The notes beneath the pieces are model-generated. The model searched no databases and was not told where the DNA came from. It saw only the letters and a list, made by a program, of their open reading frames with translations. The position numbers and the translations under genes were made by a program. A stretch of 64,000 nucleotides of DNA. Source: Escherichia phage KIT06. Shown here piece after piece: positions 4,252 to 52,286 of the stretch. Every line of letters starts with the position of its first letter. Position 1 is the stretch's first letter. The stretch lies in sequence record OQ349392.1. One strand, given 5' to 3'.

Positions 4252-4602
4252 ATGAAAGGTAATGTTTATTTAGTAGTTCATGGTTTAACATTCTATTTTA
4301 ATCACAATGACACTGTTATTTCTGAACGTGTAATTAATTTACTTTATCAGCATGCAGATTATGTTTATGTCGAAAACGAATACGGTCATTGGCAATTTCT
4401 CAAAAATCGTTCATTTGGTTTAGATGGTTACGAATACTTTGAACGTAAAGACCTTTTAGATAAAATTCCATTATCTACACAATATCAAAATCACAAGTCT
4501 TTATATAAATGCCGTCCAATTCGAAATGCTGAATCTGCGTATGAAGTAATTGATTTATGGCGTAAACGTCGTGGACAGGTTGATGCTTTAAAAGAATATT
4601 AA
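4252..4602 (+). CDS. hypothetical protein
   Basis: 116-aa ORF with GAGGAAAATATG ribosome-binding site directly after tRNA-Arg. Confidence 0.5.
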   Translation: MKGNVYLVVHGLTFYFNHNDTVISERVINLLYQHADYVYVENEYGHWQFLKNRSFGLDGYEYFERKDLLDKIPLSTQYQNHKSLYKCRPIRNAESAYEVIDLWRKRRGQVDALKEY

Positions 4603-21962: not shown

Positions 21963-22490
21963 ATGAACGCTAAAGATATTTTCAACTTGGTAAATTACAA
22001 TGATGGTAAATTTAAATCTGAAGCACAGAGTAAGTTCTTTAATGACATCTCAATCGGAGGTGAAATCACTGTTGATGGAGGACAAATTTACAAATCCCGT
22101 TGGAATTGGATCGTTATTATTGATGAGATTGGTATTGTAGAAATTTACAAGAATACGAATAAAAATCGTACATTACACTGGTCTCGTGATACTAACGAAC
22201 AGTACAAAAAGGATAAAGCATCTAAATTATCTCGTGTAACTCAAGAAGATATTGAGTTCATCAAGAAAGATATTTTAATGTATGATAACTTAATTGCTGA
22301 AGAGCAAGCTGTTATTGATAAATTTGATGAGATTAAAGCTTCTCGTGAAATTCCTGATTTTATGAAAGAATCAGTAAATGAACGATACACTCTCATTTCA
22401 GAGCGTATTGAAACTTACAAAAAGCAAAGAGCTGAACGCCAAAATACTCTTCGGAAGTTTGAAGAACGGTTAAAGACGGTACTCGCATAA
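21963..22490 (+). CDS. hypothetical protein (coiled-coil C-terminus)
   Basis: 175 aa after GGAGGAACAGAAAATG. Confidence 0.5.
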   Translation: MNAKDIFNLVNYNDGKFKSEAQSKFFNDISIGGEITVDGGQIYKSRWNWIVIIDEIGIVEIYKNTNKNRTLHWSRDTNEQYKKDKASKLSRVTQEDIEFIKKDILMYDNLIAEEQAVIDKFDEIKASREIPDFMKESVNERYTLISERIETYKKQRAERQNTLRKFEERLKTVLA

Positions 22491-22492
22491 CC

Positions 22493-22516
22493 GCTTTATA
22501 CCAAGGATGGTATAAT
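22493..22516 (+). promoter_or_regulatory. possible MotA-dependent middle promoter (imperfect MotA box)
   Basis: CGCTTTA, 12-bp spacer, TATAAT. Confidence 0.35.
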
Positions 22517-22545
22517 GGTTCTAAGCCCTTTTAATTGAGATTATT

Positions 22546-22953
22546 ATGAAACAGTTGATAATTAAAAGATTGAATTTATTGATATGTTGTTTATGTGTAG
22601 TAGTTGCATACGGTTATTATGCTATTAATGATTATATGCATTATAAAGATTATGATGTTACTGTAGTTAATACCATTACAGGAACACAAGGAAAAGGGTC
22701 TAGTTTATCGTTTATTGCCGTATATGAACTTAAAGACGGTTATAGATTTAGTGAATATATTTCCCCAGAGATGTATTCTTCAATAGAAAAAGGTGATAAT
22801 ATTACTGTAAGTTTACGTCCTTTCGACGTAAAACAGACACTGTTTGATAATATTGTTTGGTTCTTTGGGATGGTATTAGTTCAATCTGTGTGCGGTGCTT
22901 ATGTAGTCTGTTCCATCTTATTCTGTATATTTAGTAAAATTGAAATTGAGTGA
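22546..22953 (+). CDS. membrane protein
   Basis: 135 aa with N- and C-terminal hydrophobic helices. Confidence 0.5.
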   Translation: MKQLIIKRLNLLICCLCVVVAYGYYAINDYMHYKDYDVTVVNTITGTQGKGSSLSFIAVYELKDGYRFSEYISPEMYSSIEKGDNITVSLRPFDVKQTLFDNIVWFFGMVLVQSVCGAYVVCSILFCIFSKIEIE

Positions 22954-22960
22954 GGAAAAT

Positions 22961-23851
22961 ATGTCAGTAGTAATTAATAATGTCAATGCAGTAATTAAAT
23001 CTTTAGTTAATAAAAAAATGATGAATGAATGGACTGTATTTCGTCGTGGAGAGCCAGATAAATTTTTTCATAGATTTAACCCAACTTTGGATTTGAATGT
23101 TATCGACAAAGATGTTCATGCAGAAATTTTAGATAAGTTTAAAGTTGATATTGGATTTGGATTAGAAAAACATTTACAGCGAACAACCGGGTCTGGAATG
23201 AGTTTATCTAATCGCATTATGAAAGCCCTTAATAAAATTGGAGCGTTGTCTCGTATTAATGCGAGTGAAATTCTTCGTAATTATAATAAAGGATATGACC
23301 TTTATGGTCGACTAATGCCGAAATTATCATTCGATCAAATGATTGCGGATTTGTGGGAAAATCAACGACGATTATTAGCATTAGGCGCTCGATTAGCTAA
23401 AGGTCTAGATAAACAAATGATTTTTAAGACCAATAATACAGAAGACCTTAAATGCTTTAAATTTAGTATTCGTGGAGATGATTATTACATCAGAGCTCGC
23501 TCTACCGATTATATTAATATGGGACATCATCTCTGTTTAGCTTTTGAAGTTTTAAAAGAAGCTGGAACACTAGAATATTCATCTGGTGCAAAATGCCCTA
23601 TTGGTTCAAGTTGTATTTTAATTTATCGCCCGGATGAATCTAGTTCAACTAAATTGCCTACAAAACCTGTACCGGTTCGTAGTAACGAAAAACATTCTGA
23701 ACAAATTGATTATTTTAATAAGCAGATTGAAGAGCTGAATATTTCTATTCAACAATATGATGATGAAATTTTCAGACTATCTGGATTGAGTAGTAAAGCT
23801 AAATCTGAGCGTGAAAAGTTAATTAAAATTGTTGATTTACTTAAATCTTAA
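22961..23851 (+). CDS. hypothetical protein, C-terminal coiled coil (array member 1)
   Basis: ATG 22961 after GAGGAAAAT; C-terminal ~40 aa heptad-like. Confidence 0.5.
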   Translation: MSVVINNVNAVIKSLVNKKMMNEWTVFRRGEPDKFFHRFNPTLDLNVIDKDVHAEILDKFKVDIGFGLEKHLQRTTGSGMSLSNRIMKALNKIGALSRINASEILRNYNKGYDLYGRLMPKLSFDQMIADLWENQRRLLALGARLAKGLDKQMIFKTNNTEDLKCFKFSIRGDDYYIRARSTDYINMGHHLCLAFEVLKEAGTLEYSSGAKCPIGSSCILIYRPDESSSTKLPTKPVPVRSNEKHSEQIDYFNKQIEELNISIQQYDDEIFRLSGLSSKAKSEREKLIKIVDLLKS

Positions 23852-48815: not shown

Positions 48816-49556
48816 ATGATTAATGACTCTATGACAGTTGAAGAAATTCGTCTTCATTTGGGAATTGCATTAAAGGAAAAAGATTTTGTAATTGACAAAA
48901 CCGGGGTTAAAACTATTGAAATTATTGGTGCATCATTTGTAGCAGATGAACCTTTTATTTTTGGTGCTCTTAATGACGAATACATTCAGCGTGAACTTGA
49001 ATGGTATAAATCTAAAAGCTTGTTTGTTAAAGATATTCCAGGTGAAACACCGAAGATTTGGCAACAAGTAGCATCTTCTAAAGGTGAAATTAACTCGAAT
49101 TATGGTTGGGCTATCTGGTCAGAAGATAACTATGCTCAGTATGATATGTGTTTAGCTGAACTTTGTCAAAATCCTGATTCTCGACGTGGTATCATGATTT
49201 ATACTCGTCCATCCATGCAATTTGACTACAATAAAGATGGTATGTCAGATTTCATGTGTACTAATACAGTACAGTACCTGATTCGTGATAAGAAAGTCAA
49301 TGCAGTCGTTAACATGAGAAGCAATGATTGCTGGGCAGGCTATCGTAATGATTATGCATGGCAAAAATACGTATTAGATAAATTAGTATCTGATTTGAAT
49401 GCAGGCGACCCATCGCGGCAATATAAAGCAGGTTCTATTATATGGAACGTTGGAAGTCTTCATGTGTACGAAAATCAGTTTTATTTAGTTGACCATTGGT
49501 GGAACACTGGTGAAACTCATATTGCTAAAAAGGATTATACTGGAAAATGGAAGTAA
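48816..49556 (+). CDS. 42: dCMP hydroxymethylase gp42
   Basis: 246 aa MINDSMTVEEIRLHLGIALKEKDFVIDKTGVKTIEIIGASFVADEPF... Confidence 0.95.
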   Translation: MINDSMTVEEIRLHLGIALKEKDFVIDKTGVKTIEIIGASFVADEPFIFGALNDEYIQRELEWYKSKSLFVKDIPGETPKIWQQVASSKGEINSNYGWAIWSEDNYAQYDMCLAELCQNPDSRRGIMIYTRPSMQFDYNKDGMSDFMCTNTVQYLIRDKKVNAVVNMRSNDCWAGYRNDYAWQKYVLDKLVSDLNAGDPSRQYKAGSIIWNVGSLHVYENQFYLVDHWWNTGETHIAKKDYTGKWK

Positions 49557-50188
49557 ATGTGCCACATGTTTATAAGTATAAACATCCTAAAACTAAAAAG
49601 TGGTATATAGGAAGTCATGATGGTCACAACCCGAATTATGATGGTTCGGGTGTAGTTTGGCAACATGCTAAAAAGAAATATGGAATAAAATCCTTTAATA
49701 AAGAAATATTATATGAAGGACCAATGTTTAGACAAGTTGAAGAAATTATTTTAACTTGTTTAGATGCTGCTAATTGTCCGGATTCATATAATTTAAAGAA
49801 TGAAGCATGGGGAGGAAGTTTTCCAGGCAAATTAAATGGAATGTACGGTAAAAAACTATCTCCAGAAGAAAGATATAAGTGCGGAAATGCCTTTCGTGGA
49901 ATCAAGCGTCCTGATCATTCTAAAAGAATGAAAGGCGAAGGTAATCCAATGTATGGTAAAAATGAGCAGGCATATGGAATTATAAATCGAGCAAAGGAAA
50001 ATTCTGGTAAAACTTATGAAGAAATTTTTGGCGCAGAAAAAGCTAAAATAATTAAAGAAACGATGTCTAAAAATCGTAAAGGAAAACCTCATAATTTGAT
50101 AGAAAAAATATGTCCGCATTGCGGACTAAAAGGACGTGGGCCAAATATGACAAGATACCATTTTGACAAATGTAAGGCACTTAAATGA
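49547..50188 (+). CDS. free-standing GIY-YIG homing endonuclease (Seg-like)
   Basis: HVYKYKH...KKWYIGSHDG GIY-YIG module; repeated NUMOD3-like GKKLSPEE / NPMYGK motifs; overlaps gene 42 stop. Confidence 0.75.
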   Translation: MEVNVPHVYKYKHPKTKKWYIGSHDGHNPNYDGSGVVWQHAKKKYGIKSFNKEILYEGPMFRQVEEIILTCLDAANCPDSYNLKNEAWGGSFPGKLNGMYGKKLSPEERYKCGNAFRGIKRPDHSKRMKGEGNPMYGKNEQAYGIINRAKENSGKTYEEIFGAEKAKIIKETMSKNRKGKPHNLIEKICPHCGLKGRGPNMTRYHFDKCKALK

Positions 50189-51027
50189 TTCAATTTGTAA
50201 TTCCAAGTTATCAACGCGTAGGGGCAGTTTCTGCCCTTGATATGTTTCCGACTGATTATGAACCTCATATTGTAGTACGTGAACACGAAGAAAAAGCTTA
50301 TTTTGACGCTTACGGGTCTAGAGCTAAAATTATAACTATTCCTGATGATGTTAATGGAATTGCTGGAACTCGTAAAGCAATTACTGATATGTATGCAGGT
50401 CAACGAATTTGGATGATCGATGATGATACTACTATTCGTATGAGTTCAATGCGAAAGAAAGATGATCGTCGCTGCGTAGATAAAATTAATCAGTTAACTC
50501 GTGAACAGTTCTATGAATTGATTCAATATGTTGAAGATGCCATGGATTGCGGATATTATCATGGCCATGCTCGTTTACCAATTTTTAAAATTACTTCATC
50601 TTGGGGTAATTATCGTGAAAATTCATATGGATTCACGAATACATGGTATGACCTTGGAAAACTTACGACAGAACAAATTGGGTATGGAAAAATTGATTTA
50701 TGCGAAGATATGTATGCATTTCTCAATTTAATTAATCAAGGTTATCCGCATTTGGCCTTGTTCAAATATCTGGTTGTGTCTGGAAAAGCACAAGCTCCAG
50801 GTGGATGTAGTTCAATTCGTAGTAATTCAAAACATAATAGAGCTCTTGAGCAAATCAATAGAGAGTTTCCAGAGCAAGCTCGTTGGAAAACATCGAATAT
50901 TGAAAAGAGAAAATCGTTGGGTGAAGAAGACGAGCCATTAAAGGTTCTTCGCATGTGTGTTTCGCGCAAAGAAAAATCAGAAGCGTTTCATAAGTTTAAT
51001 GCTATTCATCCAATAGCAGTCGATTAA
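50185..51027 (+). CDS. GT-A-type glycosyltransferase in the beta-gt slot (possibly T2/T6 beta-glucosyl-HMC-alpha-glucosyltransferase)
   Basis: 280 aa with DxD-type motif WMIDDDTTI; unlike T4 beta-gt as recalled. Confidence 0.5.
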   Translation: MIQFVIPSYQRVGAVSALDMFPTDYEPHIVVREHEEKAYFDAYGSRAKIITIPDDVNGIAGTRKAITDMYAGQRIWMIDDDTTIRMSSMRKKDDRRCVDKINQLTREQFYELIQYVEDAMDCGYYHGHARLPIFKITSSWGNYRENSYGFTNTWYDLGKLTTEQIGYGKIDLCEDMYAFLNLINQGYPHLALFKYLVVSGKAQAPGGCSSIRSNSKHNRALEQINREFPEQARWKTSNIEKRKSLGEEDEPLKVLRMCVSRKEKSEAFHKFNAIHPIAVD

Positions 51028-51104
51028 TGCCTAAATTTATTGTGTTATAATTACTTTATCTTTAACCAGTGAGGAAAATATAATGATGCCTATGGAAAAA
51101 ATGA

Positions 51105-52286
51105 ATGTCTATTGCAGATTTAAAATCCCGTTTGATTAAAGCTTCCACTTCTAAAATGACTGCTGAACTGACTACATCTAAATTCTTTAATGAAAAGGAT
51201 GTAATCCGTACAAAAATCCCAATGCTTAATATCGCTATTTCTGGTGCGATTGATGGTGGTATGCAGTCTGGTTTAACCATTTTTGCAGGTCCTTCTAAAC
51301 ACTTTAAATCAAATATGTCTTTGACTATGGTTGCGGCGTATTTGAACAAATATCCTGATGCGGTTTGTTTATTTTATGATAGCGAATTTGGTATTACTCC
51401 AGCTTATTTGCGATCCATGGGAGTTGACCCGGAACGAGTAATTCATACACCAATTCAGTCAGTTGAACAGCTGAAAATTGATATGGTGAATCAGCTTGAA
51501 GCTATTGAGCGCGGTGAAAAAGTTATTGTATTCATCGACTCAATCGGTAATATGGCTTCTAAGAAAGAAACGGAAGATGCCTTGAATGAAAAATCTGTGG
51601 CAGATATGACTCGTGCTAAATCACTGAAGTCATTATTCCGTATTGTTACTCCTTATTTTAGTATTAAAAACATTCCGTGTGTTGCGGTTAACCACACAAT
51701 TGAAACAATTGAAATGTTTAGTAAAACCGTGATGACAGGTGGTACAGGCGTAATGTATTCGGCTGATACTGTATTCATTATCGGTAAGCGCCAGATTAAA
51801 GATGGTTCTGATCTTCAGGGGTATCAATTTGTTCTAAATGTAGAAAAATCTCGTACCGTTAAAGAAAAAAGTAAATTCTTTATTGATGTTAAATTTGACG
51901 GTGGTATCGATCCTTATTCTGGATTGTTAGATATGGCTCTTGAATTAGGATTTGTAGTAAAACCTAAAAATGGTTGGTATGCTCGTGAATTTCTTGACGA
52001 AGAAACCGGCGAGATGATTCGCGAAGAAAAATCTTGGCGTGCAAAAGATACCAATTGCACTACATTCTGGGGTCCTTTATTTAAGCATCAACCATTCCGA
52101 GATGCTATTAAACGTGCTTATCAGTTAGGTGCTATTGATAGTAATGAAATTGTTGAAGCTGAAGTTGATGAATTGATTAACTCAAAGGTTGAAAAATTTA
52201 AATCTCCAGAAAGTAAAAGTAAATCAGCCGCTGATTTAGAAACTGACCTAGATCAGTTAAGTGATATGGAAGAATTTAATGAATAA
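51105..52286 (+). CDS. uvsX: recombinase UvsX (RecA-like)
   Basis: 393 aa MSIADLKSRLIKASTSKMTAELT... Confidence 0.95.
   Translation: MSIADLKSRLIKASTSKMTAELTTSKFFNEKDVIRTKIPMLNIAISGAIDGGMQSGLTIFAGPSKHFKSNMSLTMVAAYLNKYPDAVCLFYDSEFGITPAYLRSMGVDPERVIHTPIQSVEQLKIDMVNQLEAIERGEKVIVFIDSIGNMASKKETEDALNEKSVADMTRAKSLKSLFRIVTPYFSIKNIPCVAVNHTIETIEMFSKTVMTGGTGVMYSADTVFIIGKRQIKDGSDLQGYQFVLNVEKSRTVKEKSKFFIDVKFDGGIDPYSGLLDMALELGFVVKPKNGWYAREFLDEETGEMIREEKSWRAKDTNCTTFWGPLFKHQPFRDAIKRAYQLGAIDSNEIVEAEVDELINSKVEKFKSPESKSKSAADLETDLDQLSDMEEFNE

Follow-up and report, generated by a model that had tools for sequence, protein, structure and literature searches.

How are ribosomes brought to the gene of a RecA-like recombinase when its start codon is preceded by a minimal Shine-Dalgarno (SD) sequence, while a stronger ribosome-binding site lies just upstream, in front of another AUG that opens a different frame? 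This is the question raised by uvsX in Escherichia phage KIT06 (OQ349392.1), of which a stretch of 64,000 nucleotides was analysed (hereafter the window; the features of the uvsX region located below lie on its + strand). Recombination-dependent replication in T4-like phages is driven by UvsX, a RecA-like recombinase whose abundance in relation to gp32 and UvsY is important. To our knowledge, nearly everything known about the expression of its gene comes from T4.

The KIT06 gene (51105..52286) encodes 393 amino acids, contains the Pfam domains RecA and T4_UVSX_C, and matches PDB 3io5 with E = 3e-203; since that structure spans only residues 31-360 of KIT06 UvsX, it is silent on the N-terminus. 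A TGA adjoining the ATG (51102..51104) closes the uvsX frame, so that neither an N-terminal extension nor an upstream UvsX start is possible. This stop, together with an N-terminus (MS(IA)DLKSRLIKAS) that is conserved among relatives with silent changes, rules out a wrongly placed start, and the annotated one is correct. A programmed frameshift leading to an extended protein was rejected as well, stops blocking the path both in the uvsX frame (TGA at 51084-86 and 51102-04) and in the -1 frame (51121-23).

This start appears weak by itself, as would be expected of the downstream gene of a coupled pair. Its SD is reduced to a GGA core (51094..51096, within UGGAA) located 8 nt 5' of the ATG, with a calculated pairing of -3.3 kcal/mol, which places it in the weakest third of the window: 33% of the 94 long-ORF starts are as weak or weaker. 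Nevertheless, the preliminary description overstated the case in denying uvsX any SD. Among relatives the GG of this core shows 90% conservation or more, the more distant ones having AGGA or GAGGT; gene 40, in the same window, bears an identical tggaa site; and three independent records (phage 132, Melville and Metamorpho) annotate precisely this GGA as the ribosome-binding site.

Further upstream, direct reading of the sequence bears out the strong site and the overlapping 18-codon frame that had first drawn attention to the locus. GAGGAAAA, at 51071-51078, is followed by TATA and then, 4 nt on, by ATG 51083, which opens a mini-ORF with the peptide MMPMEKMNVYCRFKIPFD (51083..51139, stop TAA at 51137-51139). 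The ribosome-binding site as a whole, GTGAGGAAAA (51069..51078), has a GAGG core (51071-51074) 8 nt 5' of this ATG and a calculated pairing of -6.5 kcal/mol with the 16S 3' end; the same string is the ribosome-binding site of long ORFs at 4252, 22961, 48411 and 62062 in the window. A canonical T-even site plus AUG (GUGAGGAAAAUAUA-AUG) is thereby found 22 nt 5' of the uvsX AUG, and the upstream frame would have both the binding site and the start codon of a coupled ORF. The mini-ORF runs out of frame with uvsX (-1 register), includes additional in-frame ATGs at 51086, 51092 and 51101, and overlaps the gene for 35 nt, stop counted, ending about 30 nt 3' of the uvsX AUG (stop end at +35).

Taken alone, such a mini-ORF is not remarkable. 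The + strand of the window has 23 short ORFs with a strong SD and an ATG and the - strand 13; about one leader of this kind is expected per window, and a search for recurrences of the leader motif elsewhere in the window found ordinary ribosome-binding sites only. It exceeds chance because of its conservation across relatives, and on that ground alone.

The transcript that carries this region would arise from a middle promoter. An extended -10 element, TGtTATAAT (51043..51051), contains a TATAAT (51046-51051) that conforms to the sigma-70 hexamer and recurs in almost every relative with the leader. A MotA-box-like element, TAATGCCTAA (51025..51034), lies 11 bp 5' of it and shares bases with the stop codon (TAA) of the beta-alpha-glucosyltransferase gene. 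MotA boxes follow (a/t)(a/t)(a/t)TGCTTtA at a distance of 12 +/- 1 bp from the -10, and MotA tolerates deviations from this consensus (PMC2988021); TAATGCCTAA agrees at the TGC-T-A positions and has two core mismatches and an 11-bp spacer. In relatives the box found at the equivalent place is better (GCTTTA) and forms part of a conserved GCTTTA-N11-13-TATAAT (the spacer is of 13 bp in the sb3 variant), and in the Lutter record a promoter is annotated over the stretch that corresponds to 51020-51051. A putative promoter of the MotA type is the best explanation of these elements. Given that the -10 occupies positions -12..-7 in T4 middle promoters (PMC2988021), the uvsX transcript would start near 51058, with an A/U-rich 5' untranslated leader of 47 nt (51058..51104).

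Another TATAAT is found within this putative leader, at 51079-51084, its last two bases opening the upstream ATG. It could be the -10 of a second promoter, the SD and ATG being a by-product: T4 has tandem middle promoters, a perfect TATAAT or TATTAT is present in all leaders, including the two that lack the ATG (L029 and L031), and at 22515 in the window a TATAATG in a middle-promoter-like site does give a spurious SD plus ATG. We consider this highly improbable, however. There is no TGn motif at the hexamer, and the sole CTT-containing box (CTTTAA) lies 14 bp away, outside 12 +/- 1, and lacks the TG; the consensus scan found no promoter there, and the Lutter annotation shows the upstream one alone. 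Furthermore, the invariant TGAG of the leader would fall in the promoter spacer, where conservation is unexpected.

In the relatives, 5' regions were collected by anchoring solely in the uvsX coding sequence, which gave 47 distinct ones. The same layout (MotA-type promoter, TGAGnAAAATATwATG, GGA, uvsX ATG) is present in at least 880 phage records belonging to at least 10 genera, in the Tevenvirinae and their allies. Leader identity reaches 0.78. Shuffling gives 0.52 +/- 0.04 (maximum 0.61), the flank 0.48 and the fourfold silent sites of uvsX 0.49, values that together indicate purifying selection on the leader. Its most conserved block is TGAGnAAAATATwATG, in which TGAG is invariant (alignment A1); the block is found in 44 of the 47 distinct 5' regions, 42 of these having the ATG at the conserved position. 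Homogenisation by gene conversion near a homing site found no support as the cause of this conservation, adjacent silent sites not being elevated: identity at silent sites of uvsX codons 1-30 (0.57-0.58) is similar to that of the remainder of the gene, and the excess ends at the uvsX ATG, which argues against such a process.

No leader with a weak uvsX SD lacks the upstream ATG; L029 and L031, where it is absent, have a better one (AGGA), and in relatives devoid of the leader the uvsX SD ranges from -4.0 to -7.1 kcal/mol, T4, at -4.0, being only slightly stronger than KIT06. The upstream SD is GAGG in the KIT06 lineage and GAGA in most genera; the latter (-2.7 kcal/mol) is no better than the uvsX GGA, so that the upstream site would not be a strong loading site in every genus.

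The leader shows no sign of structure. The single-sequence fold gave z = 0.04, consensus folds placed 0 pairs in the leader with no covariation, an alternative consensus fold had 4 invariant pairs, all inside the coding region and again without covariation, and an Rfam search with the leader found no family or riboswitch at E <= 10 besides noise. On the other hand, the spacer AAAATATA is more conserved than the distance between an SD and its AUG requires, which hints at another ligand. Such conservation would be understood if the A/U-rich AUG block were the operator of a translational repressor, most plausibly RegA, the short ORF being either incidental or the handle of the repressor. RegA is encoded by all T4 relatives (PMC2993671), and its sites, A+U-rich and free of structure, comprise an AUG and a poly(A) tract 5' of it, as exemplified by dexA (AAAAUUUAAUGUUU) and gene 44 (AAAUUAUGAUU) (PMC3014915); the leader carries AAAAUAUAAUGAUG and agrees with every one of these descriptors. 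Nevertheless, scoring against the SELEX consensus does not discriminate: 35 of the 94 gene starts in the window fit it equally well or better, and the uvsX start itself scores the same. Moreover, RegA sites overlap the AUG they regulate or stand immediately before it, whereas the block is located 22 nt 5' of that of uvsX, and uvsX has 0 occurrences in a review of post-transcriptional control (PMC3014915). We regard RegA control as the main role of the block as unlikely, if worth keeping in mind.

The product of the upstream frame behaves very differently from its start. Among distinct leaders this frame takes all three values relative to uvsX (17, 14 and 11 leaders) and its length goes from 6 to 32 codons; peptides as diverse as METYGI, MVTNGKY, MMPMEKYNV and METYGKNECLI are found besides that of KIT06, one extra A is enough to alter the peptide in L005, and in L026, which has lost the stop, the mini-ORF continues in frame into uvsX. 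No silent-site constraint beyond background was found in the part of the mini-ORF that overlaps uvsX. A small-protein gene was rejected on these grounds, neither peptide nor reading frame being conserved, and the 18-codon frame should not be annotated as coding for a protein. With peptide, frame and length all variable, selection would act on initiation at the upstream site and not on what is made there.

The position of the stop is another matter. In most genera the mini-ORF has 6-7 codons, with a stop that adjoins the uvsX AUG or shares bases with it (UAAUG, UGAAUG, UAAUGAAUG); the Marfavirus leader has UAAUG, and in that of Jiaodavirus and Karamvirus the stop is at -3. At the genus level, the stop falls in the interval -3..+1 relative to the uvsX ATG in 6 of 10 types, where composition-preserving shuffles predict 1.1, an excess whose P value is overstated because the distinct leaders are phylogenetically related. 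Three different arrangements of the stop, distributed over two frames, produce this adjacency. In other genera, where an out-of-frame TGA (+6..+8) remains, the stop is at +8. In KIT06, where it ends at +35, no stop of the mini-ORF falls within a few nucleotides of the downstream start.

These observations bear on the simplest alternative, namely that the mini-ORF is a functionless chance ORF of an AT-rich intergenic region, the leader being conserved for non-translational reasons. The abundance of similar short ORFs in the window and the lack of peptide conservation are what this would predict, but the ATG has persisted in nearly all block-bearing leaders despite saturated silent sites, the part of the leader conserved most is the binding site plus ATG, and the stop adjacency is in excess. 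We find chance very unlikely as a full account.

The preliminary description had also entertained a small insertion relative to T4, which turns the direction of the change around: it is T4 that bears the insertion. The refutation proposed there, an identical leader in T4, does not apply, T4 having no such leader. In T4 and PD112 a segA homing-endonuclease cassette stands in place of the uvsX promoter and leader. The T4 order in this region is segA - PuvsX - uvsX (PMC2988021, PMC2988022); PuvsX lies inside segA (start at 23752), unlike the leader promoter of KIT06, and its start and that of PsegA belong to a sequence other than that of KIT06. The cassette, of 666 bp, provides TAAGGT as the uvsX SD, 6 nt before an ATG that comes 8 nt after the segA stop, and of the ancestral leader T4 retains just the ~25 nt at the 5' end, behind beta-gt. 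The two phages are otherwise alike in the order glucosyltransferase, uvsX, 40, 41, in the N-terminus of UvsX and in the type of promoter, uvsX having a MotA-dependent middle promoter in T4. The T4-type arrangement occurs in 27 records versus at least 880 with the leader. The leader is the ancestral arrangement and was lost in T4 through replacement by segA. Since uvsX is expressed without it in the segA phages, the leader is dispensable if replaced. The one real small insertion is on the KIT06 side, an in-frame ATTGCA (51111..51116; Ile-Ala, uvsX codons 3-4) that is absent from the types of T4, Mosigvirus and Jiaodavirus (alignments A1 and A3); it removes the out-of-frame TGA that is the mini-ORF stop in other genera.

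Taking these data together, the leader might be seen as carrying a mini-ORF that loads ribosomes and is coupled to the weak start of uvsX, an ancestral device lost in T4; we hold this reading tentatively, a little short of an even chance. The mini-ORF would constitute a second entry point for ribosomes, which would be handed over to the uvsX start by termination and reinitiation. Of the coupled or regulated translation suggested at the outset, what stands is its agreement with the comparative evidence (the conserved block of binding site and ATG, and the placement of the stop), which does not amount to a demonstration. In the KIT06 lineage, two 1-nt changes of leader length plus the 6-nt insertion in uvsX would have moved the mini-ORF out of frame, lengthening it to 18 codons. 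With its stop beyond the uvsX AUG, coupling would need back-scanning over ~30 nt, and this geometry is a poor one for reinitiation. Alternatively, the upstream start of KIT06 would partly compete with that of uvsX, because starts 22 nt apart cannot both hold 30S subunits.

Carried further, this competition would make the KIT06 upstream start chiefly a decoy: ribosomes taken up at the GAGG would translate beyond the uvsX start and be lost to it, so that less UvsX would be made. The upstream SD is indeed 3.2 kcal/mol stronger than that of uvsX, the 30S footprints of the two starts would overlap, and the mini-ORF terminates well inside the gene. However, a decoy leaves unexplained both the placement of the stop at the uvsX AUG in most genera and the ~490 near-identical Tequatrovirus leaders that keep the arrangement in front of the gene of an abundant recombination protein, and we judge it quite unlikely as the main effect.

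Returning to the coupled mini-ORF, a more ambitious version of it is possible but doubtful: throughout the enterobacterial T4-like phages the leader mini-ORF would govern UvsX synthesis via reinitiation, possibly under the control of RegA, with T2/T6 shifted towards competition. The control would have been lost at the invasion by segA, making T4 atypical in how recombinase levels are set. A literature search for uvsX in connection with an upstream ORF, a Shine-Dalgarno sequence or RegA, and for ribosome profiling of T4 phages, retrieved nothing relevant in the collection searched.

For the arrangement of the uvsX region, T4 is in any case an outlier. If the mini-ORF does set the translation of UvsX, a control element present clade-wide would have been invisible to work on T4. 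Furthermore, the relatives would offer a natural series for the geometry of bacterial reinitiation, with stops at -3, 0, +1, +8, +13, +19 and +35 relative to the start, and the segA phages would illustrate how a homing endonuclease can overwrite a regulatory element of its host.

Three known systems help to situate this leader. In T4 genes 38 and 25 the ribosome-binding site is split, and a hairpin brings a distant SD beside the AUG. The uvsX leader is similar in having a good SD ~30 nt 5' of an AUG that lacks one; an assembly of this type was nonetheless rejected, no hairpin being found (z = 0.04, no covariation). With the RegA operators of rIIB, 44 and dexA (PMC3014915), the leader shares its A+U-rich and unstructured character and the poly(A) 5' of an AUG, and 11 of 14 positions agree with the dexA operator, a match that is not specific. 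Unlike in these operators, the candidate site is at the upstream AUG and not at that of uvsX. Translational coupling by termination-reinitiation takes place at overlapping or abutting stops and starts, as in the coat-lysis pair of MS2 and in many operons. The uvsX leader departs from such pairs in that its upstream ORF is not a real gene but a leader ORF, of 6-18 codons and with no conserved product, and in that the KIT06 stop lies 30 nt 3' of the uvsX AUG. It resembles them in its short upstream frame with a ribosome-binding site of its own, in the weak SD downstream and, in most genera, in a stop that abuts or overlaps the AUG.

In the window, the string GAGGAAAA (51071-51078, + strand) is followed by TATA and by an ATG at 51083, which opens an 18-codon frame (ATG ATG CCT ATG GAA AAA ATG AAT GTC TAT TGC AGA TTT AAA ATC CCG TTT GAT TAA; peptide MMPMEKMNVYCRFKIPFD) ending with the TAA at 51137-51139. 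Direct reading of 50700-51400 and the ORF list bear out this frame and its coordinates as given in the preliminary description, whose observation as a whole was largely right. The mini-ORF overlaps the start of uvsX, whose ATG at 51105 (+) begins a 393-aa protein (Pfam RecA and T4_UVSX_C; PDB 3io5, E = 3e-203). Since a TGA at 51102-51104 shuts the uvsX frame right before its ATG, and the N-terminal codons (MS-IA-DLKSRLIKAS) are kept among relatives with silent changes, the start position is secure, and the window sequence leaves no frameshift path by which translation begun at the upstream ATG could enter uvsX.

The statement that uvsX has no Shine-Dalgarno (SD) sequence of its own was too strong. 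A GGA (51094-51096, inside UGGAA) lies 8 nt 5' of the uvsX ATG; its GG is kept at 90% or above, more distant relatives show AGGA or GAGGT, and exactly this GGA is marked as the ribosome-binding site (RBS) in three independently annotated records (phage 132, Melville and Metamorpho). What stands is its weakness, the calculated pairing with the 16S 3' end being -3.3 kcal/mol, versus -6.5 for the GAGG further 5'. Sites that do not exceed it in strength occur at 33% of the 94 long ORFs in the window (starts chosen by a first-ATG rule), and the neighbouring gene 40 has an identical tggaa site. GTGAG(G/A)AAAAT-ATG is a standard RBS of this genome, also found before long ORFs at 4252, 22961, 48411 and 62062. 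A strong SD with an ATG opens 23 short ORFs on the + strand of the window and 13 on the - strand, so that about one such leader is expected per window and, judged within the window alone, the upstream SD and ATG are no more than chance. At 22490-22546 (+), within a middle-promoter-like GCTTTA-N12-TATAAT, TATAATG and an upstream AAGGA mimic an SD and start; the mimic at 22515 opens a 7-codon ORF just 5' of a 135-aa ORF with a weak SD, and shows how mini-ORFs can arise as promoter by-products. Five near-identical RBS strings at 546-1921 (+; ATTAGGAAAATAAAATG and CTGAGGAGAATAAAATG), about 300-370 nt apart, point to small paralogous genes arranged in tandem.

A pure chance ORF, however, does not fit the conservation of the leader. 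Among 47 distinct uvsX 5' regions, gathered through UvsX protein similarity, annotated phage records and a pattern anchored solely in the uvsX coding sequence, 44 share a common layout: a MotA-box-like GCTTTA, 11-13 bp, TATAAT, about 20 nt, TGAGnAAAATATwATG, 6-7 variable nt, (T/A)ATGGAA, 8-9 A/T-rich nt and the uvsX ATG. Ten genera are represented (Tequatrovirus, Gaprivervirus, Dhakavirus, Mosigvirus, Gelderlandvirus, Karamvirus, Winklervirus, Jiaodavirus, Kanagawavirus and Marfavirus). Over the 48 nt before the uvsX ATG the mean pairwise identity is 0.78, compared with 0.52 ± 0.04 for shuffled leaders (maximum 0.61), 0.48 for the 48 nt further upstream and, for the same pairs of genomes, 0.49 at uvsX fourfold-degenerate sites. 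Past the uvsX ATG this excess is gone: codons 1-30 show a silent-site identity of 0.57-0.58, inside the 0.44-0.64 seen over the remainder of the gene, which argues both against homogenisation by gene conversion and against the overlapping part of the mini-ORF being constrained.

The best-conserved block is the upstream RBS and ATG, with TGA, A, AT and AT invariant and conservation of at least 90% at the G of the start codon. In a less favoured reading, this block may be a RegA-type operator: it matches the RegA descriptors (A+U-rich, an AUG, a 5' poly(A), no structure) and agrees with the dexA operator at 11 of 14 positions (PMC3014915), but the fit is unspecific, since an equally good match to the SELEX consensus is seen at 35 of 94 gene starts and the score of the uvsX start is equal. 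A second, internal promoter built on the conserved TATAAT at 51079-51084 is unlikely, given that it has no TGn motif and only a CTT box 14 bp away, that the invariant TGAG would sit in its spacer, and that the consensus scan returned none, the promoter annotated in Lutter being the upstream one. From the position of the -10 of that upstream promoter, the uvsX transcript would start at about 51058. In Shigella phage sb3 (L096, 105-125), two extra T between the MotA-box-like element and the -10 lengthen the spacer from 11 to 13 bp, still inside the 12 ± 1 rule, and the leader is unchanged. Two IMG/VR loci, L029 and L031, carry a GC-rich hairpin (GACCCTTGTAATGAGGGTC, then TTTCAT) about 60-40 nt 5' of uvsX, after a TGCTTAA-N-TATAAA promoter and ahead of the conserved block; absent in the other genera, it may stabilise the 5' end or act like a terminator.

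The upstream ATG is kept in 42 of the 44 distinct leaders, the exceptions being L029 and L031, which have ATT then TTG at its site and a better uvsX SD. Relative to uvsX, the mini-ORF is in frame 2 in 17 leaders, 0 in 14 and 1 in 11. The shortest has 6 codons and the longest 32; L026 has lost the stop, so that its mini-ORF continues in frame into uvsX. Counting the A of the uvsX ATG as +1, the stop ends at -3 in Jiaodavirus, Winklervirus and Karamvirus (6 codons, METYGI or METYGK), at 0 in the L008 type (7 codons, MEINGKY; UGA-AUG), at +1 in Kanagawavirus and Marfavirus (7 codons, MVTNGKI or MVTNGKY; UAAUG overlap), at +8 in Dhakavirus, Mosigvirus and G3G6 (9 codons, MMPMEKYNV, in G3G6 MLPMEKYNV), at +13 in Gelderlandvirus (11 codons, METYGKNECLI) and at +35 in Gaprivervirus and the window type (18 codons, MVPMEKMNVYCRFEIPFD and MMPMEKMNVYCRFKIPFD). 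One extra A in an A-run gives L005, a near-identical Tequatrovirus, a different 13-codon peptide ending at +19. Since sequence, frame and length differ between leader types, and even in L005, the peptide is not the conserved feature. Its 18-codon length is a by-product of two changes in the window lineage, a leader 2 nt shorter than that of Jiaodavirus and an in-frame ATTGCA insertion (51111-51116, +) that destroys the out-of-frame TGA ending the mini-ORF at +8 elsewhere. The insertion, which adds Ile-Ala after uvsX codon 2, is also present in Gaprivervirus and absent from T4, Mosigvirus and Jiaodavirus; Winklervirus has a different 6-nt insertion (MALADLK). Most genera, as seen in Gelderlandvirus, Jiaodavirus, Karamvirus, Winklervirus and L008-type leaders (e.g. 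L010 1478-1500), contain GGAG in AUGGAGAC, 4-5 nt before the second upstream ATG (ATGGAA). It would serve a further mini-ORF, nested in the first, as a strong SD (-6.4 kcal/mol), and RegB might cleave at this GGAG. The window lineage has GAUGCC where most genera have GGAG.

The mini-ORF stop falls within -3 to +1 of the uvsX ATG in six of ten genus-level leader types, where composition-preserving shuffles predict 1.1 (the nominal P, 2e-4, is overstated, as it presupposes independence), and this adjacency is reached by three different stop solutions in two frames, which suggests coupling in most genera. Furthermore, all leaders with the weak GGA retain the upstream ATG, and in relatives without the leader or without that ATG the uvsX SDs range from -4.0 to -7.1 kcal/mol. 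Because the RBS and AUG are conserved, the stop is adjacent and the weak GGA always comes with the upstream ATG, we favour a ribosome-loading mini-ORF: ribosomes would load at the upstream RBS and AUG and translate the mini-ORF, and its termination would allow reinitiation at the weakly equipped uvsX start. The coupled or regulated translation proposed earlier finds support in this adjacency among the genera, but the geometry of the window itself is degraded, the stop lying 30 nt beyond the uvsX AUG, while the upstream SD is stronger (GAGG). There, either ribosomes would have to scan back for coupling to occur, or the upstream start may now compete with uvsX, since the two starts, 22 nt apart, are not both occupiable. 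An inhibitory decoy is possible in the window lineage, but it leaves the other genera unexplained.

The window phage is a T2/T6-type Tequatrovirus (best matches at 99.8% identity), with the beta-alpha-glucosyltransferase gene (50185-51027) upstream of uvsX. In T4, the free-standing homing-endonuclease gene segA lies directly 5' of uvsX, its stop being followed by 8 nt and the uvsX ATG, and the uvsX SD is TAAGGT. The ATTGCA insertion in the uvsX of the window lies beside the segA insertion point. Of the leader, T4 preserves no more than the first ~25 nt (tatctttaaccggtgg), behind beta-gt. The remnant ATG (NC_000866, ~2852-2778, minus strand) opens an unannotated 24-codon hydrophobic ORF, MLGPLLLIIGLGLFAFWDFFCYID, and a beta-alpha-gt 3'-end remnant and then segA come after it. 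PuvsX of T4 has been mapped to 23752, inside segA, and PsegA to 24460, in the 3' end of beta-gt (PMC2988021); according to a review, mobile-element insertions in T4 displaced existing transcription starts, and downstream-gene promoters are embedded in its endonuclease genes, segA among them (PMC2988022). Phage PD112 presents a clean replacement without leader (beta-alpha-gt stop, 4 nt, segA, 8 nt, uvsX). From this evidence, together with the T4-type arrangement in only 27 phage records versus at least 880 with at least 80% of the window's 118-nt leader region, it follows that the T4 arrangement is derived; in supposing a small insertion relative to T4, the preliminary description had the direction reversed. 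Gene 42 of the window (48816-49556) and its beta-alpha-glucosyltransferase gene have between them a 213-aa ORF (49547-50188, +) that overlaps both. With a match to PHROG 314/655 'homing endonuclease' (E = 1.8e-31) and none in Pfam, this ORF is a free-standing seg-like endonuclease at a site different from that of T4 segA.

Folded as a single sequence, the window leader does not outdo its shuffled versions (z = 0.04), a consensus of 20 leaders folds with 0 pairs, the extended alignment yields only 4 invariant pairs (within the coding region, -0.84 kcal/mol, no covariation) and the Rfam search of the leader returned noise only. Given these folds, the leader is best described as unstructured, and a hairpin-assembled split RBS is unsupported. 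As T4 lacks the leader, it was hidden from T4-based work, and searches of a limited collection of literature gave no description of this leader; the case is new. Unlike T4 gene 38/25, whose split RBS is assembled by a hairpin, the uvsX leader has no such hairpin; leader mini-ORFs with translational coupling are a well-known kind of element, and that of uvsX is real, conserved and ordinary in kind.
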